From: Myxococcota bacterium
Lineage (GTDB): Bacteria > Myxococcota_A > Polyangia > Palsa-1104 > JAEUJZ01
Reading direction: 5' to 3'
DNA length: 64,000 bases
Assembly: GCA_025057315.1 (NCBI GenBank)
Contig: JANWXW010000147.1
Location: 12,420-76,419 of the forward strand
Made by a program: the position numbers and the translations under genes. Numbering within the stretch: position 1 is the first letter of the stretch; each line of letters opens with the position of its first letter. This document shows, in pieces, positions 10,374 through 32,578 of the stretch. The notes below the pieces were generated by a model. It worked only from the letters and a program-made list of their open reading frames with translations. It made no database searches and was not told where the DNA came from.

Positions 10374-11729
<1,356 letters not shown>

Positions 11730-13655: not shown

Positions 13656-15158
13656 TCATTGTAACGCGGTTTGCGGGCGGTCGGTGGGCCCGATGACGGG
13701 AGCTGAGGGAGGCCGAGGGTCTTGGAGGGCGGCCGCCGCAGCACCGCCCCTGGGCGATGAACCATGGGGGCGGGCCTCCTGCTGGAGCGGGCCGTAGACG
13801 TAGACGCCGCGCTGCTGGCCCAGCAGCTGGTAGCGGGCGCGCGCCACGGCGAGGACCTCGGGCAGGAACCGCTCGTCGTGGCCGCCGCCGGGCGGCTCCT
13901 CCAGCGGGAAGTGCAGCACCAGGCGCTCGATCTGGCCGGCCCTCAGCGCCCGCAGCAGGGGCGAGGGATCCCACTGTCCCCGGCGCGCCAGGTTGGTGGC
14001 GAGGAAGGGCACGACCACCGGCGGCCGGCCCAGCGCGGTGGTGTACCAGGTGGACTCGGCCAGCACCGGACCCGAGCGGCCCTGCAGCTGGGCGCGGGTG
14101 TAGGCCATCTGCTGGCGTACCCCGGGCAGGCGCACCAGGGCCAAGTAGGCCGCCCCCCCGACGGCCATGCAGCAGGTGACCAGCAGGTGCAGCAGCACCG
14201 CACGCCGCCACCAGCAGCCTGCCATGGCGATGGTAAGATGCAGGCACATCGCCGTCAGCAGCTCCATCGTGTGGTTGGAGCCCGAGCCGCACCGGCCCAG
14301 CACCAGCGTCCAGGGCAGGCCCACCAGCAGCGCGCCGGCAAAGGGCCCGAGCACCTGCCGGGTGTGCGCCGGCAGCTGGGCCCAGCGACCTAGCAGCCGC
14401 ACGGCCACCGCGAGCCCGGCCCCCCAGGGCAGCACGAAGCGGGCGCACTGGCTCAGAAAGAACAGCGGGCTCCAGTCCGCCATCGTCCACAGGACCAGGG
14501 GGGCGAACAGGCCCTGGCGCCACAGGAGCCACCCGACCAGGCCCGCGGTGCCCAGGGCCAGCACCAGGCCCTGCCGGGGGGCCCGCCGCAGCGCCCAGGC
14601 CAGGGTGCCCAGCGGCAGGACCACCAGGCTGTGCTTCATCATGACCGCGGCCACAAAGGCCACCGGCGCCAGCAGGGGCCAGCCGCGCACCCGCAGCGCC
14701 ACCAGGGTGATGCCGCCCAGGCCCAGGGCCAGAGCGGGCGCATCGGGCAGGCAGGTGGCCGCATGGTAGGAGACAAACAGCGTGCCGCCCAGCAGCAGGG
14801 CCGCCACCCAGCCGAGCAGGCGCGAGCCGGTGGCGGCATGGGCACAGGCACCCAGCAGGGCCATGGCCAGCACAAAGCCGGCCAGGGACACCACCCCACC
14901 GGTGCGCACGATCTCGCTGTCCGAGGGGGCGAGCGCTGCCACCAGGTGTAGAAACAGGGGCGGATAGTTGGACTGCCACAGGGGCAGGCCGGTCGGCTCA
15001 GTGTATAGATTATAGCCTCGGCGGAGCAGCCAGATCCAGGTGGCGGTGTCTCCCTCGGCATAGCTGAGCGGCACCCGGCCGCCCAGGGTGATCAGCCACA
15101 GCAGGGCACAGGCGAGGAAGCTGGCGACGATAAGGGCAAGGTGAAACCGGGGCACCAT
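13656..15158 (-). CDS. polytopic membrane protein, GT-C-type glycosyltransferase-like (DUF2029/GT87-like)
   Basis: Start ATG 15158 (MVPRFHL). More than 10 predicted TM helices. YPPLF loop motif after TM1. Large C-terminal soluble domain. Confidence 0.5.
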   Translation of the reverse strand: MVPRFHLALIVASFLACALLWLITLGGRVPLSYAEGDTATWIWLLRRGYNLYTEPTGLPLWQSNYPPLFLHLVAALAPSDSEIVRTGGVVSLAGFVLAMALLGACAHAATGSRLLGWVAALLLGGTLFVSYHAATCLPDAPALALGLGGITLVALRVRGWPLLAPVAFVAAVMMKHSLVVLPLGTLAWALRRAPRQGLVLALGTAGLVGWLLWRQGLFAPLVLWTMADWSPLFFLSQCARFVLPWGAGLAVAVRLLGRWAQLPAHTRQVLGPFAGALLVGLPWTLVLGRCGSGSNHTMELLTAMCLHLTIAMAGCWWRRAVLLHLLVTCCMAVGGAAYLALVRLPGVRQQMAYTRAQLQGRSGPVLAESTWYTTALGRPPVVVPFLATNLARRGQWDPSPLLRALRAGQIERLVLHFPLEEPPGGGHDERFLPEVLAVARARYQLLGQQRGVYVYGPLQQEARPHGSSPRGGAAAAALQDPRPPSAPVIGPTDRPQTALQ

Positions 15159-15447: not shown

Positions 15448-16842
15448 ATGCGGGTTCGGCTGCGCGGGGCGGGCCCTCTGCTCCGACCGTTCTTTGCCAT
15501 CTTGATCACGTGTGGGCTGCTGGCCTGGTTCTGCAGCCGCGACGAGGAGGCCAGGCGGGCGATGCTGCGCGTGCGCGACACGGCGTCGCTGGTGCGCGAG
15601 GCGCCGACGCTGCTGTGGCCGCCGTGGCGGGCGCTGCGGCTCTACGTCTCGATCGACGACGACGTGAGCCTCTACTATGAGCTGTCGCGGGTGGTGTTGG
15701 GGGAGGCGGCGGACGCCGAGCAGATGCTGCGGTTTGACCACCGGCCGGATCCGGCCGAGGTGGCGGCGCTGCGGGCGCGGCTGGCCCAGGCGCGCGGCAG
15801 GCGGTGGCCGACGGGCCTGCAGCTGGGCTTCCCGCCGCTGTCGGTCCTGCTGATGGTGCTGCCGCGGCTGGCCGTGGACACGCTTGGGGCGTACCGGGTG
15901 GCGTTTGCGGTCCTGCTGGCCCTGCTGTACCTGGGGGCGTGGGGGGTGGCCGTGGCGGGGGCGGCAGGCCTGCCCCGGCGGGTGCTGTTGGGACGGATGG
16001 CGCTGGTGACGGCCTGCATGGGGCCGGTGCTGGTTGCCCGGCTGGATGTGCTGCCCGCGCTGCTGGTCGTCGCGGCGCTGGGGGCGCTGGCGCGGGGGTG
16101 GGCGCTGGCAGCGGGGCTGCTGCTGGTGCTGGGGGGGGCGGCCAAGCTCTACCCGTTGTTTTTGCTGCCGGTGTGGGCGGCGCTGCTGTGGGGCTGGGGG
16201 GGGGCGGCGCGCCGCCAGGCGGTGGCGCTGCTCGGTGGGCCGGCACTGCTCGGCGGGCTGGGCCTGCTGCTCGGCGGGCTGCCAGCGCTGGGGGAGCACC
16301 TGCGGCTGTTTGCCCGGCGGCCGGTGCAGATCGAGTCGGTGGTCGGGGCCGTGCTGCACGCTGCGGGCTGGCCGAGCGACTATGGGTTTGGCTCCAACAA
16401 CCTGCTGCTGCCCCCGTGGGTGCCCATGGCGCTGGACGGTCTGCTGGGGGGGGCGGTGCTGGCCCTGGCGGCCGGGGCAGGGCGGTGGGCGGCGCGGCAC
16501 CGCGATGGAGCGGCGCGGCGGCAGGCGCTAACCTGGTTTGCGGTGGCGACGGTGCTGGTGGTCATCACGACGAGCAAGGTGCTGTCGCCCCAGTATCTTG
16601 TCTGGCTGGTGCCGCCGGCGGCGATGCTGCCAGGCAGGGCCGGGCGCCTGGTGCTGCTGGGGGTGTGCGCGGCGATGTTGCTGACGCAGGTCTACGTGCC
16701 CTTTATGTACAGCTGGCTGATGGAGCGGCGGTGGCCGCTGCTGCTGCTGGTGCTGGTGCGCAACGGCCTGCTTGTGGGGCTGGCCGCGGGGGTGCTGGGC
16801 GTCCTGGTTCGCTCAGGGCGCCGGGACGAGGCCCTCGCGTAG
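15448..16842 (+). CDS. polytopic membrane protein, DUF2029/GT87-like glycosyltransferase
   Basis: 464 aa, multi-TM. AKLYPLFLLP motif. Paralogous architecture to 13656..15158, divergently transcribed. Confidence 0.5.
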   Translation: MRVRLRGAGPLLRPFFAILITCGLLAWFCSRDEEARRAMLRVRDTASLVREAPTLLWPPWRALRLYVSIDDDVSLYYELSRVVLGEAADAEQMLRFDHRPDPAEVAALRARLAQARGRRWPTGLQLGFPPLSVLLMVLPRLAVDTLGAYRVAFAVLLALLYLGAWGVAVAGAAGLPRRVLLGRMALVTACMGPVLVARLDVLPALLVVAALGALARGWALAAGLLLVLGGAAKLYPLFLLPVWAALLWGWGGAARRQAVALLGGPALLGGLGLLLGGLPALGEHLRLFARRPVQIESVVGAVLHAAGWPSDYGFGSNNLLLPPWVPMALDGLLGGAVLALAAGAGRWAARHRDGAARRQALTWFAVATVLVVITTSKVLSPQYLVWLVPPAAMLPGRAGRLVLLGVCAAMLLTQVYVPFMYSWLMERRWPLLLLVLVRNGLLVGLAAGVLGVLVRSGRRDEALA

Positions 16843-17979
16843 CAGAAACGCCGCCAGGCGCTGGGCCACCAGGTCGGCGGCAAAGGGGGTATGGTGGCAG
16901 TGGTCGTAGAAGAGGGGCCGGTGGGGAGCCTGCTGCCAGGCAGCGCGCAGGGCGGGCAGCAGGTCCTCGTGGGGCAGGTGGTGGCGGGTCATGAGGTCGC
17001 GGAAACGGCGCTGGGGCTCGTTGTGCACCTGGTGCGCCTCGACCTGATGGCGCACCGGCAACAAGGCTGCGGCGAGGCGGAAGCCGTGCTGGCGGCCGGC
17101 TTGCTCGATGCGTCCGAGCGCCGCCTCGATGCGCTGCCAGGCCGCCGGGGACCAGGCCGCCCCCCAGTCGCGCGCCTGGCGGACGATGAGGGCGTCGAAG
17201 GCCTCCGGATCGGTGCGCCAGTTGCCGGGGCGGAGCTGACGGCCGCGGGCAAACTCGTGCACCCAGGCCTGTCCCTCGGCGCGCAGCTCGGCCCAGTGGG
17301 TCCACTCGAACCACAGGCGCTGGGCGCTCTGGTAGACCAGGCCTGCCAGGTAGCTCTTGCCGAGCCAGCCAGACAGGGAGCGGGGGCGCATGCGCAGGGA
17401 CGGATAGCCGTCGTTCAGGTACATGGCCACCAGGACCAGGTCGGGCTGCATGGCCAGGCCGGCGTCGCGCAGGATGGCATACTCGGTCTCTGTGTCTGCG
17501 CTGCCGATGCCCAGGTTGATGACGCGGACCCGGCGCCCGCTGGCCTGCAGCAGCCGCTCCAGCCGGAAGGCGAAGGTTTCCTCGTCGGGCAGGTAGTCGG
17601 CCAGGGTAATGGAGTCGCCCAGAAGCAGCACGCGGAACTCGCCGGGCGGCTTGGGTCCTACCTCGGGCCCGCGGTAGCCGGCCGAGTTGGTGGTGAAGGT
17701 GATGTCCCGGCCAGAGACGAAGTGATGGCGGATGCGGATGCGCGCGCGCGGCACCAGGCCCACCGAGCCGGTGCGGCTGTAGCGGTAGGCCTCGTTGCCG
17801 AAGGCGTGTTGCTCCAGCTGGCGCGGGCCGGTGGCGGCCTGCAGGGAGTCCACCACGACCATCTGCGACTGGCCCAGACGGCGACAGAGCCACTCGCCCA
17901 GGCCTGTCAGGAGCAGCACCGTGACCAGCAGCAGGGCCAGGTTGGGCAGCAGCCTGCGCAGAAGGGGGGGCAGGCCCAT
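16813..17979 (-). CDS. SGNH/GDSL-family hydrolase (esterase/acyltransferase-like)
   Basis: Start ATG 17979 (MGLPPLL, N-terminal TM). GDS block VLLLGDSITLADY. Later DxxH-like region. Convergent 30-nt overlap with 15448..16842. Confidence 0.7.
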   Translation of the reverse strand: MGLPPLLRRLLPNLALLLVTVLLLTGLGEWLCRRLGQSQMVVVDSLQAATGPRQLEQHAFGNEAYRYSRTGSVGLVPRARIRIRHHFVSGRDITFTTNSAGYRGPEVGPKPPGEFRVLLLGDSITLADYLPDEETFAFRLERLLQASGRRVRVINLGIGSADTETEYAILRDAGLAMQPDLVLVAMYLNDGYPSLRMRPRSLSGWLGKSYLAGLVYQSAQRLWFEWTHWAELRAEGQAWVHEFARGRQLRPGNWRTDPEAFDALIVRQARDWGAAWSPAAWQRIEAALGRIEQAGRQHGFRLAAALLPVRHQVEAHQVHNEPQRRFRDLMTRHHLPHEDLLPALRAAWQQAPHRPLFYDHCHHTPFAADLVAQRLAAFLLREGLVPAP

Positions 17980-18216: not shown

Positions 18217-19978
18217 TTAGTCTTTGGCGTATGTTTCGCTGTCCCAGATGTGCTGGGGGTTGTCCTCGCGGCGGATGCAGTAGTCGCCCATGATGAGATA
18301 GTCGATGCCGGTGCCCATCATGCAGCGGTAGGCATCCAGGGGGGTGCACACGATGGGCTCACCGCGGATGTTAAACGAGGTGTTGACCAGCATCGGGACG
18401 CCTGTGCGTCGGCCGAAGGCGCGGATGGTATCGTAATAGAGCGGGTTGTTCTCCCGGCGGATGGTCTGCAGGCGGCCCGAGTCGTCCACGTGGCGCACGG
18501 CGGGCAACCGGTCGCGGTGGGCAGGCCGGATGGGGTAGACCATGAGCATGAAGTCACAGGGTGCGGGCAGCGGCGAGTCGCACTCGAAGTAGGTGTCGGC
18601 GTCCTCGGCGCACACGACGGGGGCGAAGGGGCGAAACCGCTCCCGGTGCTTGACCTTTTCGTTCAGGATGTCGCGCATCCGGGGGTTGAGCGGGTTGGCC
18701 AGGATGCTGCGGGCGCCGAGCGCGCGGGGGCCCCACTCCATGCGGCCCTGCATCCAGCCCACCACGTGGTCCTCGGCCACCAGGCGCGCCGTGGTCTCGA
18801 CGATCTCCTCGTCGCTGCGCAGCCGCTGGTAGCGGACGCCGTTCTGGTCCAAAAACGCGCCGATCTCGGCGGAGGAGAAGCTGGGGCCGAGGTAGGGGCT
18901 GCTTAGGGTCCAGTGGCGGGGCCGGCCCAGCAGGGTATGGTAGATGTAGGCCGCCGCGCCGATGCTGGTACCGGCGTCGCTGGCATTGGGCTGGATCCAG
19001 ACCCGGCGGAAGGGGGTCAGGCGGAGGATTTTGCCGTTGAAGACGCTGTTGAGCGCCACGCCACCCGCCATAACCAGGTTGTCGCAGCCGGTTTCGCGGT
19101 GCAGGTGGCACAGCATGCGACAGAGCACGTCCTCGGTAAGGAGCTGCACGGCCGCGGCGATGTCCTGCAGGCGCGGGGTCATGACCGAGTCGGGCGGCGC
19201 CGCTGGTCCGCCGAGCAGGTCACACAGCTTCTGCGACGGCATGCGCTCGGCATAGTGGTAGCAGAAATAGGACATGTCCAGGCGCAGACTGCCGTCCTCG
19301 CGCACCTGGACGACGTCGCGCAGCCGGGCATAGAAGGGGTTGGTGGCCCGGTCGCGGTTGCCATAGGCGCTCAGGCCCATCACCTTGTACTCGGAGTTGT
19401 TGACGCTGAAGCCGAGGTAGGCGGTGATGGTGGAGTAGAGCAGGCCCAGCGAGTGGGGAAAGCGGATGTCTTTGCGCAGGTGAATGCGGGTGCCCTCGCC
19501 GATGCCATAGGAGGCGGTGGTCCATTCGCCCACGCCGTCCACGGTCAGGATGGCAGCGCGCTCGAACGGGCTGACCAGGAAGGCGCTGGCTGCATGGGCC
19601 ATGTGGTGCTCCAGAAACAGCACGCTGCCGCGGTAGCCCAGGGCCTTGCGCAGCGTCCGGCGCAGCCGGATCTTTTCGTTCAGCCAGGACGGCAGCGAGG
19701 AGACAAAGGTCCGGTAGCTGCGCGGAAAGGACTCCAGGTGCTGACACAGCACGCGCTCGAACTTGAGCAGCGGCTTCTCGTAAAAGCCAATGTAGTCCAC
19801 ATCTTGGATGCGCAGGCCCTGGCTCTCTAGACAGTAGCGGATGGCGTGGATGGGGAACGACTGGTCGTGTTTGATGCGGGTAAAGCGCTCCTCTTCGGCA
19901 GCGGCGACGATGACACCGTCGCGCAGCAGGGCTGCTGCTGCGTCGTGGTAGTGGCAAGAGACGCCCAAGATGTTCATG
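18217..19978 (-). CDS. carbamoyltransferase, NodU/CmcH (HypF-like) family
   Basis: Start ATG 19978 (MNILGVSCHYHDAAAALL). Conserved N-terminal ASKHA-like and C-terminal YrdC-like carbamoyltransferase regions. About 587 aa. Confidence 0.85.
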
Positions 19979-19979
19979 G

Positions 19980-20510
19980 CTAGTACTGGCGAAAATAGGC
20001 ATCCAGCGAGCGCGCCTCTAGGTCGAGGTCCTGCCAGAACGTCTCCTTGTCGGGAGCCGGGGCCAGGTCCAGGAAGCGTCGGCGCAGCAGGCGCGCCACC
20101 AGCGCGGTGGGTCCCAGGGCGCCAAAGTAGATGATGGTCAGCAGGATCGCGTTGACGCCTAGGGCCACGTGGCGGCCGAAGGTACGCATGCCGTGCAGGA
20201 GGCTGCGCCAGAGCGGGCCTGCGCCGTCGTCCCGCGGCCGGCCTGGCAGCAGCCGCAGGGCATTGAGCAGCAGCACCACGCCCATCCCGCCCAGGATGTG
20301 GGGGATGCCGACGTGCTCGCGTACCAGCGCCACCTTGCGCGAGAGCATGTGGTGGGTCAGCAGCGCAAACACAAGCAGACCGAGGTGGTAGCCGACCAAC
20401 GCACCCACGCGGCCCGGCGGCAGCCGGTCCCCTGGGGGGCTGGGGGACGGGCTGGACCAGACGGACCGCAGGGGCGGCGGGGTGGCAGCAGGCGCCGTGG
20501 GCAGCCTCAT
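19980..20510 (-). CDS. SxtJ-like small membrane protein (hypothetical)
   Basis: Three predicted TM helices. Position immediately upstream of the carbamoyltransferase matches the SxtJ-like family context. Start uncertain. Confidence 0.4.
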   Translation of the reverse strand: MRLPTAPAATPPPLRSVWSSPSPSPPGDRLPPGRVGALVGYHLGLLVFALLTHHMLSRKVALVREHVGIPHILGGMGVVLLLNALRLLPGRPRDDGAGPLWRSLLHGMRTFGRHVALGVNAILLTIIYFGALGPTALVARLLRRRFLDLAPAPDKETFWQDLDLEARSLDAYFRQY

Positions 20511-20540: not shown

Positions 20541-21737
20541 CTAGCCTTCGGCGGCCATGCGGGGTACAGGCTTGCCCAGCTGGATGACGGCAGGTCCTGT
20601 CCACCGCCGTAGGGGGGCCAGACCGGCCGACCTTGCGCAGCGCTCCTGCGCCATTTGGTAGACCCGTTCATGCCGCCAGATGACCTCATCCCATGCAAAG
20701 CGGTCGAGATCAAGTTTGGCCTCCTCGGCCATGCGATGCCGCAGCTCGGCATCGCACAGCAGGCGGACGATGTAGTCGATAAATTCCTCCCAGGTGTCGG
20801 CCAGAAACCCGTGCCGGCCGTGCACCAGCGCATCGCTGACCCCGCCGTGGTTGCGCGCCACGACCGGCAGGCCAACGCAGCGCGCCTCCAGGGTGGCGAT
20901 GCTCAGCGCCTCCTTGATGGTGGGCAGGACAAAGAGCGCAGACCGCGCCAGGATGTGCTTGATCTCCTGCCTGGACAGCAGGCCTGGCAGCTCCAGCAGG
21001 TCCTCAACGCCCAGCCGATGGGCCTCCCGCTCGACCCGTGGCCGCTCGGGGCCGTCTCCCACCAGCGTGAAGCGCGGACAGATGCCGGGGGGCAGACGGC
21101 GCATAATCTCCGGGATGGCGCGGACAAAGTCGGTGGGCCGCTTGCGGCGGGTAAAGCGCATCACGCTGGTGACGCGCAGCTCTGAGGTGGGTGGCCGCTG
21201 CACTCGCCAGGCGTCCAGGTCGATGCCGTTGGGCAGCACGACGATGTCGTCTCGGCGGTAGATGCGGCGCTGTTCCTGCACCACGTACCGGCTGACGCCG
21301 GACAGGACGTCTGGGCGGCCCAGCCAGCCTGACACCGAGTCCAGCAGACGCAGCAAAGTACGCTGGCCGCGCAGCACCGAATGCTCGGTGACCACCGACG
21401 GGATGCCAAGGCGGCGCGCGACGTGGACACCGCCGATGGCCAGGGGCGATAGGCCGGCGTGACAGTGCAGCAGGTCGAAGCGCTCCCGGCGCACGATCTC
21501 CTCCAGCACGTCGAGGGCACGGCGGTTGGCGATGGTTCGCAGCACGGGCAGCAAGGGAACCCGCAGCCGGTGCACGGGGAAGCCATCCTGCCCGGGTGGC
21601 CCCGGCGTGGCGGTGATGACGTGGGCCTCATGGCCGCGCCGGGTGAGCTCACGTGCCAGGTCGCGCATGTGCAGCTCCAAGCCGCCCACCCGGGGCAGGT
21701 ACCAGTCGCTGACCAGAGCTATCTTAAGGGACGGCAC
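20541..21737 (-). CDS. glycosyltransferase family 1 (GT-B, GT4-like)
   Basis: 398 aa. N-terminal GT4 domain (LVSDWYLPRVGG). C-terminal Glycos_transf_1 motif (EALSIATLEARCVGLPVVA, the E-x7-E region). Confidence 0.85.
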   Translation of the reverse strand: MPSLKIALVSDWYLPRVGGLELHMRDLARELTRRGHEAHVITATPGPPGQDGFPVHRLRVPLLPVLRTIANRRALDVLEEIVRRERFDLLHCHAGLSPLAIGGVHVARRLGIPSVVTEHSVLRGQRTLLRLLDSVSGWLGRPDVLSGVSRYVVQEQRRIYRRDDIVVLPNGIDLDAWRVQRPPTSELRVTSVMRFTRRKRPTDFVRAIPEIMRRLPPGICPRFTLVGDGPERPRVEREAHRLGVEDLLELPGLLSRQEIKHILARSALFVLPTIKEALSIATLEARCVGLPVVARNHGGVSDALVHGRHGFLADTWEEFIDYIVRLLCDAELRHRMAEEAKLDLDRFAWDEVIWRHERVYQMAQERCARSAGLAPLRRWTGPAVIQLGKPVPRMAAEG

Positions 21738-21821: not shown

Positions 21822-22943
21822 TCAAGAGGCGTGTCGAATATCTGACGCAGGGGCAGGTTGGTCCTCGCCGCGTGGGCTTGACAGATTGGATGAACCACCG
21901 GACCTGAACCTGGCCATGCGCCGTCCGATTGAGAGTAGGGTTTGCGGACGGCGCCAGCTGTCCAGCGATGAGACGCGATGGACACAACCGATGGTGCAGG
22001 TGGGGGCACACTGCTTGGGCGTGTCAAACTCGCGCCGGATGTCCTCGATCGTGTACTCGTCCAGGGGAATGGCGGGGTAGCCGCGCTGCTGGGAGCAGTA
22101 GTGCACCAGGCCGAACTCGCAGATATATAGATAGCGAGCGCCGGCACGGCACTGCCAGTCGTTGGGCTCGCCGCGCACGAGCCTGTGCTGGAACCCATGC
22201 ACCCGGCTGTAGAGGCCCTGGCCGTAGGCCACGGCCTCCCGGTAGATGGCATGCTCCCGCGGGCTGAGCGGCCGGAGCTGGCCCGAACCGTCGTGGATGA
22301 TGCCCACCGAAGTGGTGAAGCCGAGCTCGGCGGCACGGCGGGCAATGATCACCGCGTCCTCCGGCCGGCGGACCCCGGAGCCCAGCACCGTGTTCACGTT
22401 GACGTGGAACTCGGCCAGCTCCGACAGATGTTGCAGCTTGCGGTCGAGCGTGCGCAGGCTCTTTTGGGACGCCTCGTCGGGCTCGACGTTGTCGATGCTG
22501 ATCTGGAGGTGGTCCAACCCCGCTTCGTTCAGGCGCCGGATGCGCTCCGGCCCGAGGAAGAAGCCGTTGGTGATGAGCCCGGCCATCATCCCCCGGGCGC
22601 GGATGTGGGCGATGATGGTATCGAGGTCAGGGTGCATCATGGGCTCGCCCCCGCTCAGGGTGACGATGGAGGTGCCCAGCGCCGCGAGCCGATCGATGCG
22701 CCGGCACACCTCGGCCACGGGAACGGGGTCGGAGACCTTGTCATACTCGTTGCAGTAGCTGCACGACAGGTTGCACCGGCGCATGGGAACGATGTGCGCC
22801 AGGATGGGGTGCGACTTGTGGAGCAGGGCCCACAGAATCAGCCGGGCCTCGCGCAGGGACCGGGTGAGCTTGCGTCTTCCGGGTCGCATCGGGGGTGTCC
22901 TCGCTGCCTGGTATGCGGGTTCAAGCAGGAGCTGTGCCATCAT
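21822..22943 (-). CDS. radical SAM protein with a C-terminal Cys cluster (HpnH-like / SPASM-like)
   Basis: CNLSCSYC (the CxxxCxxC radical-SAM motif) followed by a GGEP motif. C-terminal CAPTCTIGC cluster. Start is either ATG 22943 (23-nt overlap with the downstream gene) or ATG 22889. Confidence 0.8.
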   Translation of the reverse strand: MMAQLLLEPAYQAARTPPMRPGRRKLTRSLREARLILWALLHKSHPILAHIVPMRRCNLSCSYCNEYDKVSDPVPVAEVCRRIDRLAALGTSIVTLSGGEPMMHPDLDTIIAHIRARGMMAGLITNGFFLGPERIRRLNEAGLDHLQISIDNVEPDEASQKSLRTLDRKLQHLSELAEFHVNVNTVLGSGVRRPEDAVIIARRAAELGFTTSVGIIHDGSGQLRPLSPREHAIYREAVAYGQGLYSRVHGFQHRLVRGEPNDWQCRAGARYLYICEFGLVHYCSQQRGYPAIPLDEYTIEDIRREFDTPKQCAPTCTIGCVHRVSSLDSWRRPQTLLSIGRRMARFRSGGSSNLSSPRGEDQPAPASDIRHAS

Positions 22944-23799
22944 GGGCTGGACGGGGGGGGGATCGCACAGCCCGCCACAGCCTGCGGCCGCCCAGGGCCA
23001 GGACCACCAGGCCGCTGGCGGCCGTGGCCAGGACGTAGCTGATGGACCGATCGAGCAGCGCGATGGCCAGTGCGGTTTCGACCGGCACTCCGTAGAGACA
23101 CAGGGTGGCGGTCAGGCTCGCCTCCACCACGCCCAGGCCGCCCATCATCGGCACCGCAGCGCCGGCGGCCGCTGCAAAACACAGCCCGACCGCCTGCGAG
23201 GGCTTCAGCCACACGCCGAAAGCCGCCGCTGCGGCTGCCAGACGGAGGATGTCTGCAGCCCAGACCAGCAGCGAGATGCCCAGGGCCCGCAGCAGGGGCC
23301 CCCGCGGCAGATGCACGCGGGCCAGCTGGGCTCGCAGCCGCTGACGCCAGCCATGCTCCCCAGAGGCCGCACGCAGCAGCGCCAGCGCCGCGACCCCGGC
23401 TGCCAGGACAAGCGCCAGCGGGCCCAGGTGGCCGCGCCGGGCGACATCGGGCAGGGCCGGCAGGGCCAGGAGCAGAAACAGCGGCGCCGGCACCCAGTCG
23501 AGCAGGCGGTCGTAGGCTGCCGACGCGGCGGCTCGTCGCAAGTCCACCCGCGTGCGCAGCTGCAGCACCACGACGCGGCCGATCTCGCTGCCGAGGCGGC
23601 CAGGCGTGACGTTGTTGAGGAAGGTAAAGGCCAGGTTGGCCAGGATCGTCTCGCGCAGCCGCACCGCCTCCTCCAGGCCCAGCAGGAGCGTCTGCCAGCG
23701 ACGCCCACCCAGATAGACCCAGGCGGCATACAGGGCCGCCACCGCGAGCACCAGAGCGGGGTTGGCGCCGAGCAGCGCCTCCACAGAGCGCTGCAGCAT
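22921..23799 (-). CDS. UPF0104 / lysylphosphatidylglycerol-synthase-TM-like (flippase-like, HpnL-like) membrane protein
   Basis: Start ATG 23799 (MLQRSVEALL). 8 predicted TMs. Charged loop RLGSEIGRVV typical of UPF0104. 8 nt downstream of the MMPL gene. Confidence 0.65.
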   Translation of the reverse strand: MLQRSVEALLGANPALVLAVAALYAAWVYLGGRRWQTLLLGLEEAVRLRETILANLAFTFLNNVTPGRLGSEIGRVVVLQLRTRVDLRRAAASAAYDRLLDWVPAPLFLLLALPALPDVARRGHLGPLALVLAAGVAALALLRAASGEHGWRQRLRAQLARVHLPRGPLLRALGISLLVWAADILRLAAAAAAFGVWLKPSQAVGLCFAAAAGAAVPMMGGLGVVEASLTATLCLYGVPVETALAIALLDRSISYVLATAASGLVVLALGGRRLWRAVRSPPRPAHDGTAPA

Positions 23800-23807
23800 G
23801 TGCTGGA

Positions 23808-26294
23808 TCACGGCAGGCGTGCCTGGCGCCGCGCCAGGATCTGCGCCAGGATTGGCAGCACCAGCAGCGCCGCCATCAGGCAGGTCACCTCGCCCAGGTC
23901 CGCCAGCAGGCCAAAGGAGCGCAGCGCCCGGTTGTGCGACAGCAGCAGGGAGCTGTAGCCGATGATGGTCGTCAGCGAGCACAGCGCGACCGCCGAGCCG
24001 GTGTGGGTAATGACGTCCCGGACGCGGTCGCGGCCCTGGCGCAGCCGCGCCCAGATGTTGGCCGCATAGTCGGCGCCGATCCCCAGCGTGATTGGCAACC
24101 CGACGAAGTTCATAAAGTTAAGCTTCAAGCCAATGGCCCCCAGCAGCCCCCCTAGCCAGCACAGGCCCACGCTCAGCGACACCAGGACCGGCAGGGCGCC
24201 GGGCCAGCCGAACGACAGCAGCATCAGCAAGCTCACCCCGACCAGAGCCGCCAGCGTGATGCGCGGGCCGTCCTGGATGATGGTCGAGATCATGCCGGCA
24301 AAGACGGTGGCCGTGCTGGCAGCGACCCAGGTCTTGCCCTCTGCCTCCACCTGGAGCACCTCGGCGATGCGCAGCAGGTCCCGCCCATTCCAGGCATAGA
24401 AGGTAGTCGGGTCGGCGTCGATGCCGATGAGGCGGCCCCGGGTGCCATCGATCTCGGTGAACGCCTCGCGCACAATCTGCGGCAGGTCGTCCACACCGAT
24501 GCGGCGCAGGTAGTCGGGCGGACGGAAGCGATCGACCTCGCGGCGCTCCTCGTCCGTCATCAGGTGCATGTGGCGGTCGATCTTGCGGCGGATGCGGGCC
24601 AGGATCTCCAGCTTCTCGTCCTGCTCGGAGGGCAGCACGGAGTTGAGCGTCCGCACCACGCTGAGCACATGGCGGGCGCCCAGGGCTCGATCCTTGGCCC
24701 GGATCGCCTCGGCGACGACGTCGGCCTGCTCGGGGCGGTCGACCAGCAGCACGCCGTCGTTGCCGATGTGGCCGGCGCCCACCGCCCCCATGCCCATCAT
24801 CTCCATCCGTCCCCACAGGCGCTGCGCCTCGGTCTGCTCGCTGCGCAGGTTCTCGAAGTTCCACTCCAGCGGGTCGGCAGCGTAGCGGACCAGGGGCACA
24901 ATGGCCGCCACCACCAGGGCCAGGCTCGCCAGCCCGAGCCAGCCCGCGTAGCGTTCGGCCAGGCGGCCTACGGCGGCAAAGGGTCGCTCCCACAGGTTCA
25001 TGCGCGGCGTGAAGAGGCCCGGCCACCGCCGCTCGCCCCAGATGATCATGGGTGGCACGAGCAGGAAGGCCATCAGCCACACCAGCAGCATGCCGGCGCC
25101 GCCCACCAGCCCGAACTGGCTGAAGCCGCGGAAGCTGGTTCCCAGCAGGCAGCCATAGGCGATGCTGGCTGCAGCCACTGCCGTGATGGTCGCCAGCAGG
25201 GTGGAAGACATGGCTCGGGCCAGCGATGGCCCGACGGCCAGACCCCGACTGCGCTCCTCCCCGAAGCGCGCCACCAGGATGATCGGCGTGTTGATGCCGT
25301 TCCCCAGGATGATCGAGATGAGGAACGACGTGTTCATGTTCAGGTGCTGGATGGTAAAGCGCGCCAGGACCAGCGCCAACAGCAGCCCCAGCACGGCGGG
25401 TGCGCCCACCACCAGCAGCAGGGCCGGCCGGCGAAAGTAGGAGTAGATGGCCAAAAAGACCAGGGTGCCACACAGCAGGGTGGCCAGGGTGAGGTCGTTG
25501 CGAATCGCCTCGCTGTCATCCAGAACGTGGGCAATGTGGCCGGTGTAGCGGACGGTCAGCTTCGGGTGGAAGGAGGTCGGCCGGAGGCGGCGCACCTCAG
25601 AGCGCACGGCCGCCATGGTCTCGAAGTCGCCGGCGGTGGCCAGGCCATCGCGGCGCTTCCACAGCATGATGCCCAGGTAGTGGAGCCCGTCCTCGCTCGC
25701 CAGGAAGTAGTCCGTTTGCGAGCGCGGCGGCACCTTCTGCTCCAGCCCGCGGCGCAACTCGCTCAGCTCTTGCTCCGGATCGCCTTCCAGATCCACCAGG
25801 AAGGGGGAGGTGCGCCGGGCAATGATCCGGTCCAGCAGCGCCTCGGCGCGCTCCAAATCGGCCCGCTCCGCGTACAGCCACCGCCATCGGGCGGCAAACT
25901 CCGGCCCCTCCGTGTCCGGCCGCCACTGGATCTCGGTGAAGACGCGGGGGATCATCGCCTCCAGGCGGGGACGGAGGGCCTCTGCGAAGCGGCGGTTTGC
26001 CTCCTGGTCTGGACTCTCGATGATCATCACCAGGTTGGTGGCGCTTTTCTGCCGCGGCGTGACCGTACGGATCGCCCGCACAGCGGGGTGGTGCTCGGGG
26101 AGCAACTCGACCAGATCGGTGCGCAGCTCGAGCTGGCTAACCGGCACGAGCGCAGAGAGCGCCAGCAGCCCTAAGGCGCCGAGCACCAGGCTGGTTTTTC
26201 GCTCCGCAAACCGGACGTAGCCGGCAAAGAGGCGATCAAAGAGGCGATCGACGACGCGGTTTGGAACACCGTGCTGGCTGGGAAGACTGGTCAA
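23808..26294 (-). CDS. MMPL/RND-superfamily transporter (HpnN-like lipid exporter)
   Basis: 828 aa. Two 6-TM bundles, each followed by a large periplasmic loop (a 12-TM RND-like fold). MMPL-like conserved TM4/TM10 regions. Confidence 0.8.
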   Translation of the reverse strand: MTSLPSQHGVPNRVVDRLFDRLFAGYVRFAERKTSLVLGALGLLALSALVPVSQLELRTDLVELLPEHHPAVRAIRTVTPRQKSATNLVMIIESPDQEANRRFAEALRPRLEAMIPRVFTEIQWRPDTEGPEFAARWRWLYAERADLERAEALLDRIIARRTSPFLVDLEGDPEQELSELRRGLEQKVPPRSQTDYFLASEDGLHYLGIMLWKRRDGLATAGDFETMAAVRSEVRRLRPTSFHPKLTVRYTGHIAHVLDDSEAIRNDLTLATLLCGTLVFLAIYSYFRRPALLLVVGAPAVLGLLLALVLARFTIQHLNMNTSFLISIILGNGINTPIILVARFGEERSRGLAVGPSLARAMSSTLLATITAVAAASIAYGCLLGTSFRGFSQFGLVGGAGMLLVWLMAFLLVPPMIIWGERRWPGLFTPRMNLWERPFAAVGRLAERYAGWLGLASLALVVAAIVPLVRYAADPLEWNFENLRSEQTEAQRLWGRMEMMGMGAVGAGHIGNDGVLLVDRPEQADVVAEAIRAKDRALGARHVLSVVRTLNSVLPSEQDEKLEILARIRRKIDRHMHLMTDEERREVDRFRPPDYLRRIGVDDLPQIVREAFTEIDGTRGRLIGIDADPTTFYAWNGRDLLRIAEVLQVEAEGKTWVAASTATVFAGMISTIIQDGPRITLAALVGVSLLMLLSFGWPGALPVLVSLSVGLCWLGGLLGAIGLKLNFMNFVGLPITLGIGADYAANIWARLRQGRDRVRDVITHTGSAVALCSLTTIIGYSSLLLSHNRALRSFGLLADLGEVTCLMAALLVLPILAQILARRQARLP

Positions 26295-27776: not shown

Positions 27777-27813
27777 GGCGCGCCTGCGGGCCCACGCTAG
27801 CATGGGAGCTCGC

Positions 27814-28530
27814 ATGGAGGTCTGCATCACCATCGACGTCGAGCAGGACTGCCCGCCCTACCTTGACAGCTACCGCGGCATCGAGGAGGGCATGCCCCAG
27901 CTGATGGCGCTGCTGCGTGAGGAGGGGGTGCCAGCCACCTTCTTTACAACGGGCGATGTCGCCCGCCGCTATCCTGCGGTGGTGCGCCGCATCGTGGCTG
28001 AAGGGCACGAACTCGGCGCCCATGGCGACACCCACCGCCGGTTCAGCGAGCTGGATGCTGCCCAAGCTCGCGCCGAGCTGGAGGCTGCCAGCGCCACCCT
28101 GCGTGCCTTTGCCCCGGTGGTTTCCTTCCGCGCGCCCAACCTCGACCTACCGGCCTGTGTTCTGCCCCTGTTGCGCCAGCACGGCTACCGCATCGACTCC
28201 TCCCAGGGCCGGCACAAACACGGTCTGTACTTCCGCCGCCCGCGCGTGCACCGAGAGGCAGGGCTGTGGCGCGTGCCGGCGTCCCTGCCACCGAGCGTGC
28301 TGCGGGCACCTGGTCCGCTGCCGAATCTGCTGTGCGCGCTGTGCGAGAGCCCCTTTGTGCCTTTTTACCACCCATGGGACTTTGTCGACCTGCGGGGCGC
28401 GCCGATCCCGCTGGACTGTCGCCTGCGCAGCGGGGAGGCGGCCCTGCGGCACCTGCGCCGCACGATCCGTTGGCTGCGGCGGCGGGGTGCGCGCTTTCTG
28501 CGCCTGGCCGACCTGTCCTTCCCCGATTGA
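27814..28530 (+). CDS. polysaccharide deacetylase (NodB homology, CE4)
   Basis: ITIDVEQD (the TFDD-like Asp motif), HELGAHGDTH (His-His metal site) and a RAPN motif. 238 aa. Confidence 0.8.
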   Translation: MEVCITIDVEQDCPPYLDSYRGIEEGMPQLMALLREEGVPATFFTTGDVARRYPAVVRRIVAEGHELGAHGDTHRRFSELDAAQARAELEAASATLRAFAPVVSFRAPNLDLPACVLPLLRQHGYRIDSSQGRHKHGLYFRRPRVHREAGLWRVPASLPPSVLRAPGPLPNLLCALCESPFVPFYHPWDFVDLRGAPIPLDCRLRSGEAALRHLRRTIRWLRRRGARFLRLADLSFPD

Positions 28531-29665: not shown

Positions 29666-32578
29666 ATGCGGCCAGGTCTGTTTTTCATCGTTCTCGGATG
29701 GGTCCTCGCGATGGTTCCACCGAGGGCAGCGGCGGCCCCCATCGACATCGAAGCGAACCGGGCTAGCGCTCCCCCGCGGAGCGATCAAGGACACGGCATT
29801 TGCACCACGGCCGTCCATTTGAACCAGGACGATCTGCTCACGGGCGTGGAGGTCGCTGAGGCCTACCTGGCACAGTCTGTCGGCATGAACCGCGTGGACG
29901 GCAAGGTAAGCTTCCCCTACGCCACCATCGATTTCCGCAACAGTGCTCCCACGGCGGGGGGGGACTACCCTGACAACCGTCCGTTGCCCTTTACCGCGCT
30001 GCCTGGTACCCCCCAGGTCGGCAACGAACGCAACATCGCCATGCGGGTGCGCGGCTACATCAATATCTATCGTCCGGGCATCTTCACCTTCGCCGTGCTG
30101 GCAGATGATGGCTACCGCCTCCGCATCGGTGGCAAGGACATCCTCAGCTCGGTGGGGTTTGCGTCGCTACGCGACAGCCGACAGGTGCGCTTCGCCGCAC
30201 AGGGCCTGTATCCAATTGAACTAGTTTACTTTCAGAACACAGGTCCGGCGATGTTGGAACTGTCCTATGCCGACCGCGAAGACCTGGAGGTGCAGCACTC
30301 GCCGACGCCGCTCGGCGGGGGGTTCAGTCTGGTCCCCCAGGCTGCACTCTTTTCGGCCGTGGCCGGCCGCAGCGACTGCACCGAGTGCAACGACGACGCC
30401 ACCTGTGGGCCCACCATGGGCCGCTATTGCCGCGATGGCCTCTGCCAGCCCTGCATCGTGCCTGCCCGCTGCGGCCAGAACTGCCAGCCCTGTCCTGCCA
30501 GCCAGCCGGTGTGCAACGGCAGCGCCTGCGTCGAGTGCAGCGCAAGCGACACCAGCGTCTGCGACCGAAAGGGCTTTGTCTGCGAGCTGAACACTTGCCG
30601 TCCGTGCCTGGCCGACTCCGAGTGCGGCAATGGCCGCATCTGTGACATTGCGTTCGGACAGTGCATTCCCCGGCCGAACCTGCGCTATGCCGGCGGCTGC
30701 AGCGTGGCGCCCGGCGGGCAGGAGCCTGCTCTGGTGGTACCGCTGCTGTTGCTCGCCCTCGGCCTGCTGATCGTGGGCGCGCAGCGGCTTCGCTCTCGCT
30801 CCGCGCTGGCTGCGCTGGTGTTGCTGGTGGGGGCGGGCCAGGCCCGTGCGCAGCAGTCGCTCGAGGTGGCCCGGTTCAATGCCCAGACGTTTCGCCCAGC
30901 GATGGGCCCCGGCAACGTGTTTACCGTCGAGGGGACCCTTATGCCGCGCCGGCTTTTTCCCTTCGGTGGTCTCTTCTTTCAGTACGCCCACCACCCGCTG
31001 CGTCTGGTGGTGGAGGGTACCGGCGAAACCTATGCCTACCCCGTCTCGCTGATGTTGACCGCACACCTGATGCCTGGCTTCGGCATCACGCGCTGGTGGT
31101 CGGTGGGCCTCGACCTGCCCGTGGTCATGTACCAAGGCTTTGACGAGCGCACGCCCGCAGCAGACACCAACTTTACCATCCCCGCAGCTGGCGGAGTCGG
31201 CGATCTGCGCCTGATGACCAAGTTCCGCATTCTCAACAACGAGGGCGGCGGCTTCGGCCTGGCGGCGGTGCCTCAGTTTGTCTTTCCCACCGGTGCCGCC
31301 GCATCGCCCAACTCGTTTCGCAGCGAGGACACCGTTGGCATCGAGCCACGCATCGCCGCCGACTACCGCTTTCGCAACGGCATCTTCATTGCGCTGAACC
31401 TTGGCTACTGGCTCCGCACCTACAACCGCAACGTGGACTTCGGCGTGGTCCGCGTGGCCGATCAGATCCGTTATGCATTGGGCATGGGGGCACCCATCCT
31501 GAAGGGATTTGGCGTGGCCGGCGAGATGAGCGGCGCGATCAGCCTCAGCCGTCTGGATGGCGGGCCGCTCTACTCGCCGCTGGAGGGCTTTGCGGGCCTG
31601 CGCTACACGCACTCCTCAGGCCTGGAGGCAAGCGTGGGCGGCGGTGGCGCCTTTGTCTCTGCCGTCGGAATACCGCTGTTTCGCGCTTTCGCCAGCATCG
31701 CCTTCGTGCCCACCGGCAAGCGGCCGGAGCGCAGGGTCGAGCCCCGGCCTGAACTGCAAGACCTGGATCCCGATGGCGATGGCGTACAGGGCGTAGAGGA
31801 CGAGTGCCCCAGCAAGGCCGGGCCGCGTGAAAACCGCGGTTGTCCAGACAAGGACCAGGACCGAGACGGCATCGTGGACCGCCTCGACCGGTGCCCGACG
31901 GAGGCCGGCCCGAGCGAAAACGAGGGCTGCCCGGACACCGATAGCGACCGAGACGGCATTGTGGATCGGCTCGACAAGTGCCCCACCGAAAGCGGTGTGG
32001 CGCAACACGATGGCTGCCCCGAGCTTGACACCGACAAGGACGGTATCCTTGACAAGGACGACCGGTGCCCGGCCCAGCCCGGCGTCGCTGACAACCAGGG
32101 CTGCCCGGACACCGACGAGGACAAGGACACCATTGTGGACCGGCTCGACCGGTGCCCGAAGGAGGCCGGCCCGCGTGAGACGAGTGGCTGCCCCGTGCTC
32201 CAGGTCAGCGACAACCGCGTGAGGCTGGTGCTGCCCATCCGCTTTGCTCCAGGCAAAGACACACCGCAGAAGGAGTCCGACCAGGTGATCATGGCCCTGG
32301 CCCAGCTTATGGCCCAGGACAGCTCGATCAAGAAGCTCCAGATCGAGGTCCCAGCCAGCGGTGACAAGAAGACAGCCAAGAAGCTGGCCGGCAAGCGGGC
32401 CAAGAACCTGCTCGGCTTGCTGGTGGATGCCGAGGTGTCCAAGAAGCGGCTGGCCATCAAGGCGGCCAAGAGGCTGGAGGGCGACGAGATCACCGAGGTC
32501 ACTCTCAACAGGGGCAAGGTCAAGGACAAGAAGGGCAAAAAGGCCAAAGCGGGTAAAAAGGGCAAAAAGGCCAAATAG
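29666..32578 (+). CDS. 970-aa ORF. N-terminal part: signal peptide, PA14-like domain, Cys-rich repeats and a MYXO-CTERM-like GC...hydrophobic...RLRSR segment. It continues in frame into an OmpA-family outer-membrane protein (second signal peptide, beta-barrel, 5x thrombospondin type-3 Ca-binding repeats, divergent OmpA-like C-domain, poly-Lys tail).
   Basis: PA14-like GYINIYRPGIFTFAVLADDGYRLRIGG. CxxC-rich repeats at aa 238-333. AGGCSVAPGG...LLLALGLLIVGAQRLRSR at aa 342-378. Then ALAALVLLVGAGQARAQQ. DxDxDGxxDxxDxCP repeated five times. Tail KDKKGKKAKAGKKGKKAK. Confidence 0.7.
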   Translation: MRPGLFFIVLGWVLAMVPPRAAAAPIDIEANRASAPPRSDQGHGICTTAVHLNQDDLLTGVEVAEAYLAQSVGMNRVDGKVSFPYATIDFRNSAPTAGGDYPDNRPLPFTALPGTPQVGNERNIAMRVRGYINIYRPGIFTFAVLADDGYRLRIGGKDILSSVGFASLRDSRQVRFAAQGLYPIELVYFQNTGPAMLELSYADREDLEVQHSPTPLGGGFSLVPQAALFSAVAGRSDCTECNDDATCGPTMGRYCRDGLCQPCIVPARCGQNCQPCPASQPVCNGSACVECSASDTSVCDRKGFVCELNTCRPCLADSECGNGRICDIAFGQCIPRPNLRYAGGCSVAPGGQEPALVVPLLLLALGLLIVGAQRLRSRSALAALVLLVGAGQARAQQSLEVARFNAQTFRPAMGPGNVFTVEGTLMPRRLFPFGGLFFQYAHHPLRLVVEGTGETYAYPVSLMLTAHLMPGFGITRWWSVGLDLPVVMYQGFDERTPAADTNFTIPAAGGVGDLRLMTKFRILNNEGGGFGLAAVPQFVFPTGAAASPNSFRSEDTVGIEPRIAADYRFRNGIFIALNLGYWLRTYNRNVDFGVVRVADQIRYALGMGAPILKGFGVAGEMSGAISLSRLDGGPLYSPLEGFAGLRYTHSSGLEASVGGGGAFVSAVGIPLFRAFASIAFVPTGKRPERRVEPRPELQDLDPDGDGVQGVEDECPSKAGPRENRGCPDKDQDRDGIVDRLDRCPTEAGPSENEGCPDTDSDRDGIVDRLDKCPTESGVAQHDGCPELDTDKDGILDKDDRCPAQPGVADNQGCPDTDEDKDTIVDRLDRCPKEAGPRETSGCPVLQVSDNRVRLVLPIRFAPGKDTPQKESDQVIMALAQLMAQDSSIKKLQIEVPASGDKKTAKKLAGKRAKNLLGLLVDAEVSKKRLAIKAAKRLEGDEITEVTLNRGKVKDKKGKKAKAGKKGKKAK

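Follow-up and report, generated by a model that had tools for sequence, protein, structure and literature searches.

What would a radical S-adenosylmethionine (rSAM) enzyme do beside a flippase-like membrane protein and an exporter, when the hopanoid genes that such company calls to mind are missing? The question is raised by a 64-kb stretch of DNA (hereafter the window; positions 12,420 to 76,419 of contig JANWXW010000147.1, assembly GCA_025057315.1) from a Myxococcota bacterium, with a GC content of about 65-75%, in which three consecutive minus-strand genes encode an MMPL/RND-type exporter, a UPF0104 protein and an rSAM enzyme. A previous sequence-only reading of this trio, whose coordinates and domain names held up in our hands, had compared the rSAM enzyme with the adenosylhopane synthase HpnH and had proposed C-C or C-adenosyl chemistry on a different lipid, with dedicated flipping by the UPF0104 protein and export by the MMPL protein. 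Our comparisons of sequences and gene neighbourhoods incline us, by a modest degree, to the view that the trio would form the core of a conserved Myxococcota cluster for the assembly, flipping and export of an envelope glycolipid or lipoglycan, most likely an amino-sugar lipid. The part of the earlier proposal that sees in the trio a unit of a non-hopanoid lipid or glycolipid pathway survives, UPF0104 and MMPL genes being conserved partners of the rSAM gene, but we found nothing that supports C-adenosylation specifically.

The cluster, of about ten genes, covers about 13.6-28.5 kb of the window and is made of two divergent operons and flanking GT-C glycosyltransferase genes. The minus-strand operon encodes, in this order, the MMPL, UPF0104 and rSAM proteins, a family 4 glycosyltransferase (GT4), a small membrane open reading frame (ORF), a carbamoyltransferase and an SGNH protein; the divergent plus-strand pair encodes a tandem-SRPBCC protein and a CE4 deacetylase, while a GT87/PIG-M-like GT-C gene lies to the left and a gene for a second polytopic protein further left. 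The genes are the following.

23808..26294, minus strand: MMPL/RND-type inner-membrane exporter, HpnN/HAE3-like; 828 amino acids (aa) from a TTG at 26294; Pfam MMPL 85 bits.
22921..23811, minus strand: UPF0104/LPG_synthase_TM flippase-like membrane protein, about 292-296 aa; start at GTG 23811 or ATG 23799; PF03706 122.8 bits.
21822..22889, minus strand: 355-aa rSAM enzyme, from an uncharacterised family that is twitch/SPASM-like; may start instead at 22943; Pfam Radical_SAM 80 bits.
20541..21737, minus strand: GT4 retaining glycosyltransferase, BshA/MshA-like, with UDP-N-acetylglucosamine (UDP-GlcNAc) as probable donor; Pfam Glyco_transf_4 and Glycos_transf_1.
19980..20510, minus strand: small predicted membrane protein of 176 aa, between the GT4 and carbamoyltransferase genes; hydrophobic segments; GC at third codon positions 0.88.
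18217..19977, minus strand: NodU/CmcH-type carbamoyltransferase, starting MNILGV at 19977; Carbam_trans_N 269 bits, Carbam_trans_C 232 bits.
16813..17979, minus strand: SGNH/GDSL-like hydrolase or acyltransferase, membrane-anchored by an N-terminal hydrophobic segment; weak Pfam matches to Lipase_GDSL_2 and AlgX SGNH.
15448..16842, plus strand: GT87/PIG-M-like polytopic GT-C glycosyltransferase; homologues carry PF09594.
13656..15158, minus strand: polytopic membrane protein, tentatively a second GT-C; 43% identical to a gene of comparison contig L088.
26532..27776, plus strand: tandem-SRPBCC (START-like) protein, secreted and lipid-binding, its gene diverging from the MMPL operon; Pfam Polyketide_cyc2 37 bits, in two stretches.
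27802..28530, plus strand: cytoplasmic CE4 (polysaccharide deacetylase family) de-N-acetylase; Pfam Polysacc_deac_1 70.9 bits.

What carries our view is the company that the rSAM gene keeps in other genomes. Partner genes lie within 10 kb of it in every examined locus that has enough flanking sequence and an rSAM at least 67% identical (L001/2, L005, L085, L086, L087 and L088, the labels L001-L093 denoting comparison contigs), and also in L003 (65%); taken together, the rSAMs of these loci are 65-74% identical to that of the window. The partners are themselves related to those of the window, at 45-59% identity for GT4, 55-59% for CE4, 49-65% for MMPL, 39-43% for UPF0104 and 42-55% for the tandem-SRPBCC protein (about 404-421 aa). 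MMPL orthologues occur in 6 of 7 independent related loci, CE4 orthologues in L001, L003, L085, L086 and L088, SRPBCC counterparts in L001, L085 and L086, and GT87/MptA_B-type GT-C genes in L001, L086 and L088. Gene order and strand are shuffled from locus to locus, and the rSAM and GT4 genes often overlap: GT4 adjoins or overlaps the rSAM gene in L001, L003, L085, L086 and L088. This recurrence of partners on seven independent contigs, in shuffled order, exceeds chance. The sequence-only reading had remarked that the rSAM gene sits beside glycosyltransferase and carbamoyltransferase genes rather than shc, and rightly so: both neighbours are real, and no shc, hpn or squalene-synthesis gene or domain was found in the 64-kb window, nor in L001-L003 and L085-L088.

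The rSAM protein carries the motifs CNLSCSYC and SGGEP, and its resemblance to HpnH goes no further than the generic rSAM core and an N-terminal helix. No NCBIfam model comes near its cutoff, all matches being limited to the core (roughly residues 42-190). The HpnH model TIGR03470 ranks only 21st among them, with 45.6 bits over residues 42-188 against a cutoff of 225.05, and is outranked by PqqE, MoaA, NirJ, AhbC/D and Tes. The C-terminal HpnH domain DUF3463 (PF11946) gave no match to the window protein at E<=0.01, whereas a genuine HpnH from a Mycetohabitans plasmid (L092), whose gene lies in the hopanoid arrangement ispH-hpnH-hpnA-GT...shc-hpnD together with an HpnN gene, scores 204.6 bits. 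These two proteins are 27% identical over residues 24-225, and hhalign of the rSAM family profile against the genuine HpnH covers columns 33-234 only and stops before the Cys-rich C-terminal domain. Membership of HpnH was rejected on these three counts, and we conclude from the sequence that the protein is not HpnH. Nor is its architecture HpnJ-like: no B12-binding domain and no HpnJ match (TIGR03471) appeared in the Pfam and NCBIfam scans.

The C-terminal part of the protein instead holds six invariant cysteines (C247-X9-C257-X7-C265 ... C294-X3-C298-X3-C302) and conserved histidines. Canonical SPASM domains have the spacing CX2CX5CX3C, from which this pattern differs, and no Pfam SPASM match was obtained; binding of an Fe-S cluster by these residues is a prediction. 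The AlphaFold2 model (predicted template modelling score 0.76; per-residue confidence, pLDDT, low only near the cluster-binding loops and the tail) combines an amphipathic helix at the N-terminus with a partial TIM barrel and a region of beta-hairpin; residues 253-275 are predicted to form beta-strands. Because of the Cys-bearing C-terminal domain, and of the partial TIM barrel and beta-hairpin of the model, we tentatively place the enzyme by sequence and predicted fold in the twitch/SPASM neighbourhood, with a non-canonical Cys pattern. The best fold match is the sugar-acting enzyme BlsE, at 17% identity (model TIGR04466, 43.5 bits against a cutoff of 400); PqqE and SkfB are among the nearest relatives, and there is a distant resemblance to Tes/GDGT-MAS.

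The enzyme belongs to a family of about 330 aa, 60-73% identical between Myxococcota and Acidobacteriota, for which the searches matched more than 8000 clusters defined at 90% identity and, at E<=1e-30, 341 representatives at the 50% level. GTDB species-representative genomes contain at least 595 stretches that match, and the best 80 of these loci are nearly all from Acidobacteriota (Acidobacteriaceae, Bryobacteraceae/Solibacteraceae, Pyrinomonadaceae/Blastocatellia and Vicinamibacterales); the plasmid collection gave only distant rSAMs, below 30% identity. Large and highly conserved, and frequent in two phyla that dominate soils, the family has neither an assigned function nor a curated model. 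Its distant members, labelled P02xx and 41-55% identical, occur in fusions with a family 2 glycosyltransferase (GT2; P0275 and P0278), with a VTT/DedA membrane domain (P0245) and with a NodS-like methyltransferase (P0279), the fused GT2 being closest to the polyprenyl-phosphate glycosyltransferases PpgS/AglJ/ArnC; around two others (P0253 and P0293) there were only housekeeping genes or contigs too short to read. In the fusion loci L089-L091, the GT2-rSAM gene adjoins genes for a 990-aa B12-binding rSAM and a SPASM rSAM, and the DedA-rSAM gene adjoins PAP2_3, CDP-alcohol phosphatidyltransferase and LolCE-like genes. Linkage to a CDP-alcohol phosphatidyltransferase was seen in two loci only, L004 and L091, and we did not use it to argue for a link with inositol or phosphatidylinositol (PI).

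All-against-all ORF clustering of 84 loci gave no partner common across acidobacterial families, only lineage-specific synteny (LolA-like protein, ABC ATPase, pyruvate kinase, GGDEF, adenosine deaminase and UvrD genes, with the LolA-like protein and ABC ATPase in Pyrinomonadaceae). A candidate precursor of a ribosomally synthesised and post-translationally modified peptide (RiPP) was sought by clustering the 2124 small ORFs that lie within 600 nucleotides (nt) of the rSAM gene at 173 loci, and was rejected: the recurrent ones were only Arg/Ser-rich and look like out-of-frame conserved coding sequence. Neither the window nor four acidobacterial loci gave an Rfam match, to a riboswitch or other RNA, that reached the gathering score.

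For GT4, a weak PIGA match was found, the best NCBIfam match is BshA (106 bits, below cutoff) and the PDB matches are BshA (3mbo/2jjm/5d00), then MshA, PimB and PimA. BshA and MshA use UDP-GlcNAc, and deacetylases come next in their pathways. The CE4 protein keeps the HGDTH metal motif and has NCBIfam matches to the XrtA-type deacetylase and NodB, both below cutoff, as well as a weak match to ArnD. GT4, CE4 and rSAM are all without a signal peptide, and the SRPBCC and SGNH proteins have hydrophobic N-termini; the tandem-SRPBCC protein also has an internal repeat. The exporter gives 170.5 bits with the HpnN model TIGR03480 (cutoff 751.85), 109.1 with NF052374 (cutoff 1100), 130 with HAE3, 123 with BstA and, below these, 68.8 with the actII model TIGR00833 (cutoff 874.7); its only PDB sequence matches at E<=1e-5 are HpnN (5khn and 6wu0), with no MmpL structure, and it is 23% identical to a genuine HpnN and collinear with it over both halves. 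By these scores it has an HAE3-like architecture and is neither an HpnN orthologue nor a mycobacterial-type MmpL. Membership of the UPF0104 family is clear from PF03706 (cutoff 33.4 bits) and from the flippase-like domain model TIGR00374 (75.9 bits against 43.2), although the first 25 or so profile positions are lacking in this protein and in its cluster homologues; the HpnL model TIGR03476 gave no match at E<=0.01.

The polytopic proteins at the left are less easily named. That at 15448-16842 has itself a weak Pfam match (PIG-M, E 0.06), but 15 of its 17 homologues carry PF09594 (GT87), many also PF05007 (PIG-M), and L086 has a GT87-marked gene whose product shares 39-40% identity with it. 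The protein at 13656-15158 has its homologue in a 462-aa gene inside the L088 cluster and a very weak match to Mannosyl_trans4 (E 0.41). Profile-profile comparison of both with MptA_B-type proteins was not significant, the alignments being too shallow. The carbamoyltransferase (NodU model 158 bits, below cutoff) is specific to the window and absent from the related loci, and for the 176-aa membrane ORF we found neither a Pfam match nor a counterpart in those loci.

What follows is a proposal for the pathway, as regards its sequence of steps, its donor sugar and acceptor lipid, its rSAM chemistry and its destination. The BshA/MshA-like GT4 would add GlcNAc or a related amino sugar to a membrane lipid acceptor at the cytoplasmic face, and the cytoplasmic CE4 would then remove the N-acetyl group from the lipid-borne sugar. 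The rSAM enzyme, held at the membrane periphery by its N-terminal helix, would carry out one radical tailoring step, most likely on a sugar, either a nucleotide-sugar donor or a lipid-linked glucosamine (GlcN) as with HpnJ and Cds, and less likely on the lipid itself. The UPF0104 protein would move the product to the periplasmic leaflet, where the GT87/PIG-M-like GT-C enzymes may lengthen the glycan from polyprenyl-phosphate sugars and where, in this genome, the carbamoyltransferase and SGNH enzyme may decorate the product; the HpnN-like RND pump would finally pass it to the tandem-SRPBCC protein, a secreted carrier that would take it to the outer membrane. Of this scheme we are least sure about the rSAM step. 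We favour a sugar as substrate because of the fold neighbours, the GT2 and NodS fusions and the precedents of HpnI/HpnK/HpnJ and Cds; we keep a lipid core in play because in Acidobacteria the rSAM does without GT4 and CE4, and because of its N-terminal membrane helix and the fusion to DedA. A nucleotide-sugar substrate would reconcile the facts on both sides.

Several points weigh against the proposed pathway. In about 160 Acidobacteria-type loci, where the rSAM shares 57-66% identity with that of the window, no partner gene lies within 10 kb, and the GT4 family counts 824 matches against the more than 8000 of the rSAM, its few named members being all from Myxococcota. The rSAM therefore has a role for which this GT4 and CE4 are not needed, and the idea that its substrate is what GT4 makes loses strength. 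The related loci do not share the carbamoyltransferase and SGNH genes, no confirmation was obtained for 13656-15158 as a second GT-C, and GT4, CE4, MMPL and UPF0104 all fall below curated NCBIfam cutoffs, with the exception of the UPF0104 match to the domain model TIGR00374. Finally, the flippase activity of UPF0104 proteins is unproven, even for GpgF (PMC12713373).

The acidobacterial loci invite the thought that the rSAM enzyme acts on a lipid aglycone as HpnH, Tes or Mss do, making a C-C bond on the hydrocarbon chain of a core lipid that would be glycosylated, flipped and exported in Myxococcota and used without the cluster in Acidobacteria, a possibility that we take seriously while holding it rather unlikely. 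It would account for a family widespread in Acidobacteriota without GT4 or CE4 neighbours, and it agrees with the N-terminal amphipathic helix, with the fusion to a DedA/VTT membrane domain and with the Lol, Bam or Mla genes found near the rSAM gene in several loci; moreover, Acidobacteria lack Mss and have Tes in 3 of 14 examined, yet make iso-diabolic acid (PMC13159169). On the other hand, sugars or nucleotides are the substrates of the best relatives in fold and in sequence, the protein, at about 330 aa, falls far short of Tes in size, the fused polyprenyl-phosphate-sugar GT2 and the fused NodS-like methyltransferase suggest sugar chemistry, and the identity across the two phyla is, in our own judgement, high for a lipid-tail enzyme; the match with the distribution of acidobacterial lipids, over 80 + 80 loci, is a correlation only. 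Pushed further, the same thought would make this family the missing aerobic-bacterial enzyme for membrane-spanning lipids, through tail-to-tail coupling of the iso-diabolic-acid type, and the Myxococcota cluster a system to glycosylate, flip and export such a bolaform lipid. Acidobacteria of subdivisions 1, 3, 4 and 6 do make membrane-spanning lipids of this type (PMC13159169); what permits the idea is only this taxonomic match, the fact that acidobacterial rSAMs do without GT4 and CE4, the membrane helix and the distant resemblance to Tes/GDGT-MAS, and we consider it quite improbable. Roughly as likely is that the enzyme turns lipid-linked GlcN into a carbocyclic aminocyclitol, which would give a bacterial lipoglycan like glycosylphosphatidylinositol (GPI) or phosphatidylinositol mannosides (PIM), with a cyclitol-type head group.

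The amino sugar might otherwise be carried on polyprenyl phosphate, as in the Arn route, with the UPF0104 protein flipping it, a GT-C enzyme transferring it to lipid A, polysaccharide or protein, and the MMPL and SRPBCC proteins exporting the acceptor or an unrelated lipid. CE4 (with its weak ArnD match), flippase and GT-C mirror ArnD, ArnE/F and ArnT, and the distant fusions of the rSAM to PpgS/ArnC/AglJ-like enzymes and to a VTT domain agree with this, DedA proteins being known to handle carrier lipids such as undecaprenyl phosphate. The conserved transferase beside the rSAM is, however, a GT4 and not a GT2. GT4 enzymes normally glycosylate diacylglycerol, phosphatidylglycerol, PI or small molecules, not polyprenyl phosphate, and the constant presence of an HpnN-like exporter with a START-like carrier argues that the product is itself a transported lipid; we judge such a carrier-lipid route unlikely. 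Two further explanations concern the family of the rSAM enzyme. That it is a SPASM/twitch maturase of a RiPP or of a cofactor, standing beside membrane genes by chance, could be argued from its Cys-rich C-terminus and from its top NCBIfam and PDB sequence matches, which include PqqE, SkfB, NirJ and other SPASM maturases, in the core domain only. The sequence-only reading had itself named a grouping with such maturases, together with a nearby precursor gene, as what would speak against it, and half of this was found: the C-terminus is SPASM/twitch-like and PqqE and SkfB are relatives, but no precursor peptide gene was seen, the best structure match is BlsE and the conserved neighbours are all of glycolipid type. 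Since no curated cutoff is approached, the gaps of 31 and 84 nt that flank the gene leave no room for a peptide gene, no conserved peptide-like small ORF flanks it among 173 loci and the Cys pattern differs from that of SPASM domains, we find a maturase very improbable. Hardly credible, lastly, is an HpnH orthologue in a divergent pathway for hopanoid side chains: the combination of an rSAM with UPF0104 (compare HpnL) and an HpnN-like RND protein offers a superficial parallel (PMC12324291), to which the 27% identity with genuine HpnH may be added, but the scores given above, the alignment that ends before the C-terminal domain and the absence of shc and hpn genes from the window and the related loci all contradict it. 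On balance we stay with a pathway for a glycolipid or lipoglycan, in which the rSAM enzyme would most likely act on a sugar.

The junctions within the trio depend on the start codons chosen. The MMPL stop codon (TGA, 23810-23808) stands 8 nt from the first in-frame ATG of the UPF0104 gene (23799), as the sequence-only reading had noted; an alternative in-frame GTG at 23811-23809 would replace this gap by a 4-nt GTGA overlap. Homologues from related clusters (291-312 aa) begin at an equivalent position that fits both codons, and by this comparison the UPF0104 protein is the short form of about 292-296 aa, the 353-aa ORF that starts at 23982 (23982..22921) not being the real protein. A 23-nt overlap of the UPF0104 stop (22923-22921) with the rSAM gene had also been reported; it is geometrically right if the rSAM starts at the ATG at 22943, but there is little to support this start. 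M19, which lies at 22889, is where the closest homologues (329-336 aa) begin, as does a 100% identical NCBI protein (355 aa) from a "Myxococcales / Myxococcota bacterium" metagenome-assembled genome, and a GAGGA motif lies 8 nt upstream of 22889 with none before 22943; because of the homologues, the NCBI call and this ribosome-binding site we favour 22889, which leaves gaps of 31 nt between UPF0104 and rSAM and 84 nt between rSAM and the next gene. Some more distant homologues have longer N-termini, so that the long form is still possible. The coordinates of the trio are correct, and whether its genes overlap is a matter of the start selected. Gaps below 10 nt and overlaps of 4 nt are the commonest arrangement in bacterial operons, and for this reason we regard the spacing of the trio as unremarkable.

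A few observations from the comparison contigs deserve mention in their own right. In about 20 acidobacterial loci of the Pyrinomonadaceae type (within L006-L082), the rSAM gene comes directly after genes for a secreted LolA-like protein, a lipoprotein of about 359 aa and a LolD-like ABC ATPase; elsewhere it adjoins BamA (L093) or MlaDEF (L001), so that a setting of outer-membrane biogenesis seems to recur. A variant without MMPL in L003 (5916-14398) has a NodS-like methyltransferase gene beside rSAM, a PI-PLC-C1 domain protein beside UPF0104 and a PNP_UDP_1 nucleosidase/phosphorylase (HpnG family type) beside CE4. In L001 (13997-15127, minus strand), a FemAB-like Acetyltransf_6 protein (112 bits), which has no equivalent in the window, is encoded between the SRPBCC and UPF0104 genes and may N-acylate or aminoacylate the deacetylated sugar. 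Within the window, the gene directly beside the cluster (29666-32578, plus strand) encodes a protein of 970 aa whose N-terminus is PA14/TraA-like and which also has thrombospondin type 3 repeats and a region like TraB (NF033763, 324 bits, below cutoff); this may be a fused or divergent TraA/TraB protein of myxobacterial outer-membrane exchange. A further gene (32645-33610, plus strand) encodes a protein with the C-terminal domain of copper type II ascorbate-dependent monooxygenases, which is unusual for a bacterium. On the other side (9159-12234, minus strand), a DUF790 protein gene (282 bits) is followed at once by that of an XPB/ERCC3-type helicase with a damage-recognition domain, a pair that resembles the archaeal XPB-Bax1 nuclease-helicase pairing, and the region 39704-52573 holds the housekeeping genes hrcA, dnaK and dnaJ and an OEP/HlyD/AcrB efflux operon.

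The building blocks of the cluster are of known kinds. On the way they are combined here, and on the rSAM family, our search of the literature gave no paper, and a 2026 review of lipid-modifying rSAM enzymes confines itself to Tes, Mss, Gms, GrsA/B, Gmm, Cds, HpnH/J/P/R, Jaw5 and the ladderane enzymes. The Myxococcota set of genes to make, flip, extend and export a product offers a handle on what a family of more than 8000 clusters makes. If the proposed pathway is true, diderm bacteria would have a new class of outer-membrane glycolipid or lipoglycan, rSAM enzymes would have a new type of chemistry, directed at lipids or at lipid-linked sugars, and the HpnN-type model of lipid transport, an RND pump plus a periplasmic carrier, would reach beyond hopanoids and sterols. 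Should core lipids be the substrates of the orthologues in Acidobacteria, the family would bear on the source of the branched glycerol dialkyl glycerol tetraethers (brGDGT) that serve as palaeoclimate biomarkers.

How does this cluster compare with known systems? From the sugar- and nucleotide-acting twitch/SPASM rSAMs (BlsE, AbmM, SpeY, MoaA, DesII and BtrN) the window enzyme differs by its Cys pattern and its N-terminal amphipathic helix, and by a gene context of membrane lipid rather than antibiotic or cofactor biosynthesis. With the assembly of the GPI core (PIG-A, PIG-L, flip, PIG-M) and of mycobacterial PIM and lipomannan (PimA/PimB, PimE, MptA/B) the clusters share a GT4 with a weak PIGA match, a de-N-acetylase, a flipping step and PIG-M/GT87 and MptA_B-type GT-C enzymes. 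PimE/PIG-M-type GT-C enzymes work on the periplasmic face. The likeness is one of logic only: the cluster has no conserved gene for inositol or PI synthesis and its GT4 is nearer to BshA/MshA than to PimA, while the GPI and PIM pathways are without rSAM, UPF0104 or HpnN-like RND proteins.

Closer in layout are GpgSDF of Pseudomonas aeruginosa, where a GT4, a de-N-acetylase and a UPF0104 flippase candidate lead to glucosaminyl-phosphatidylglycerol (PMC12713373), and HexSDF, of the same layout, for the aminohexosyl glycolipid of Clostridioides difficile (PMC10128005). Like these systems, which make cationic amino-sugar membrane lipids and have a putative flippase of the UPF0104/AglD2 type, the window combines GT4, deacetylase and UPF0104 (PMC12713373, PMC10128005). 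The proteins are not orthologous, however, the window GT4 reaching only 24.4 bits, in its C-terminal part, with the GpgS model NF053787 (cutoff 480), and its deacetylase belongs to CE4 whereas GpgD is a COG3233 deacetylase (PMC12713373); the rSAM, the RND exporter, the periplasmic SRPBCC carrier and the GT-C transferases come in addition to what has been described for Gpg and Hex.

The hopanoid genes differ from the cluster in nearly every individual protein: shc and squalene genes are absent from the window, the glycosyltransferase is a GT4 and not a GT2 like HpnI, the rSAM is neither HpnH nor HpnJ-like, the deacetylase is a CE4 with no listed match to the HpnK model, HpnK having its own curated family (TIGR03473), the UPF0104 protein misses the HpnL model and the MMPL protein gives 170 bits against the HpnN cutoff of 752. 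As a whole, they are nevertheless instructive. HpnL is a UPF0104/AglD-family protein and HpnN exports hopanoids, with HpnM/S/T as periplasmic shuttles (PMC12324291), while HpnI/HpnK/HpnJ and Cds provide cases of an rSAM enzyme at work on a lipid-linked sugar (PMC13459092). Both sets of genes unite an rSAM enzyme, a glycosyltransferase, a deacetylase, a UPF0104 family protein and a HAE3-type RND exporter that feeds periplasmic carriers (PMC13459092, PMC12324291), and, taken as an analogy, the hopanoid system describes the logic of the Myxococcota cluster well.

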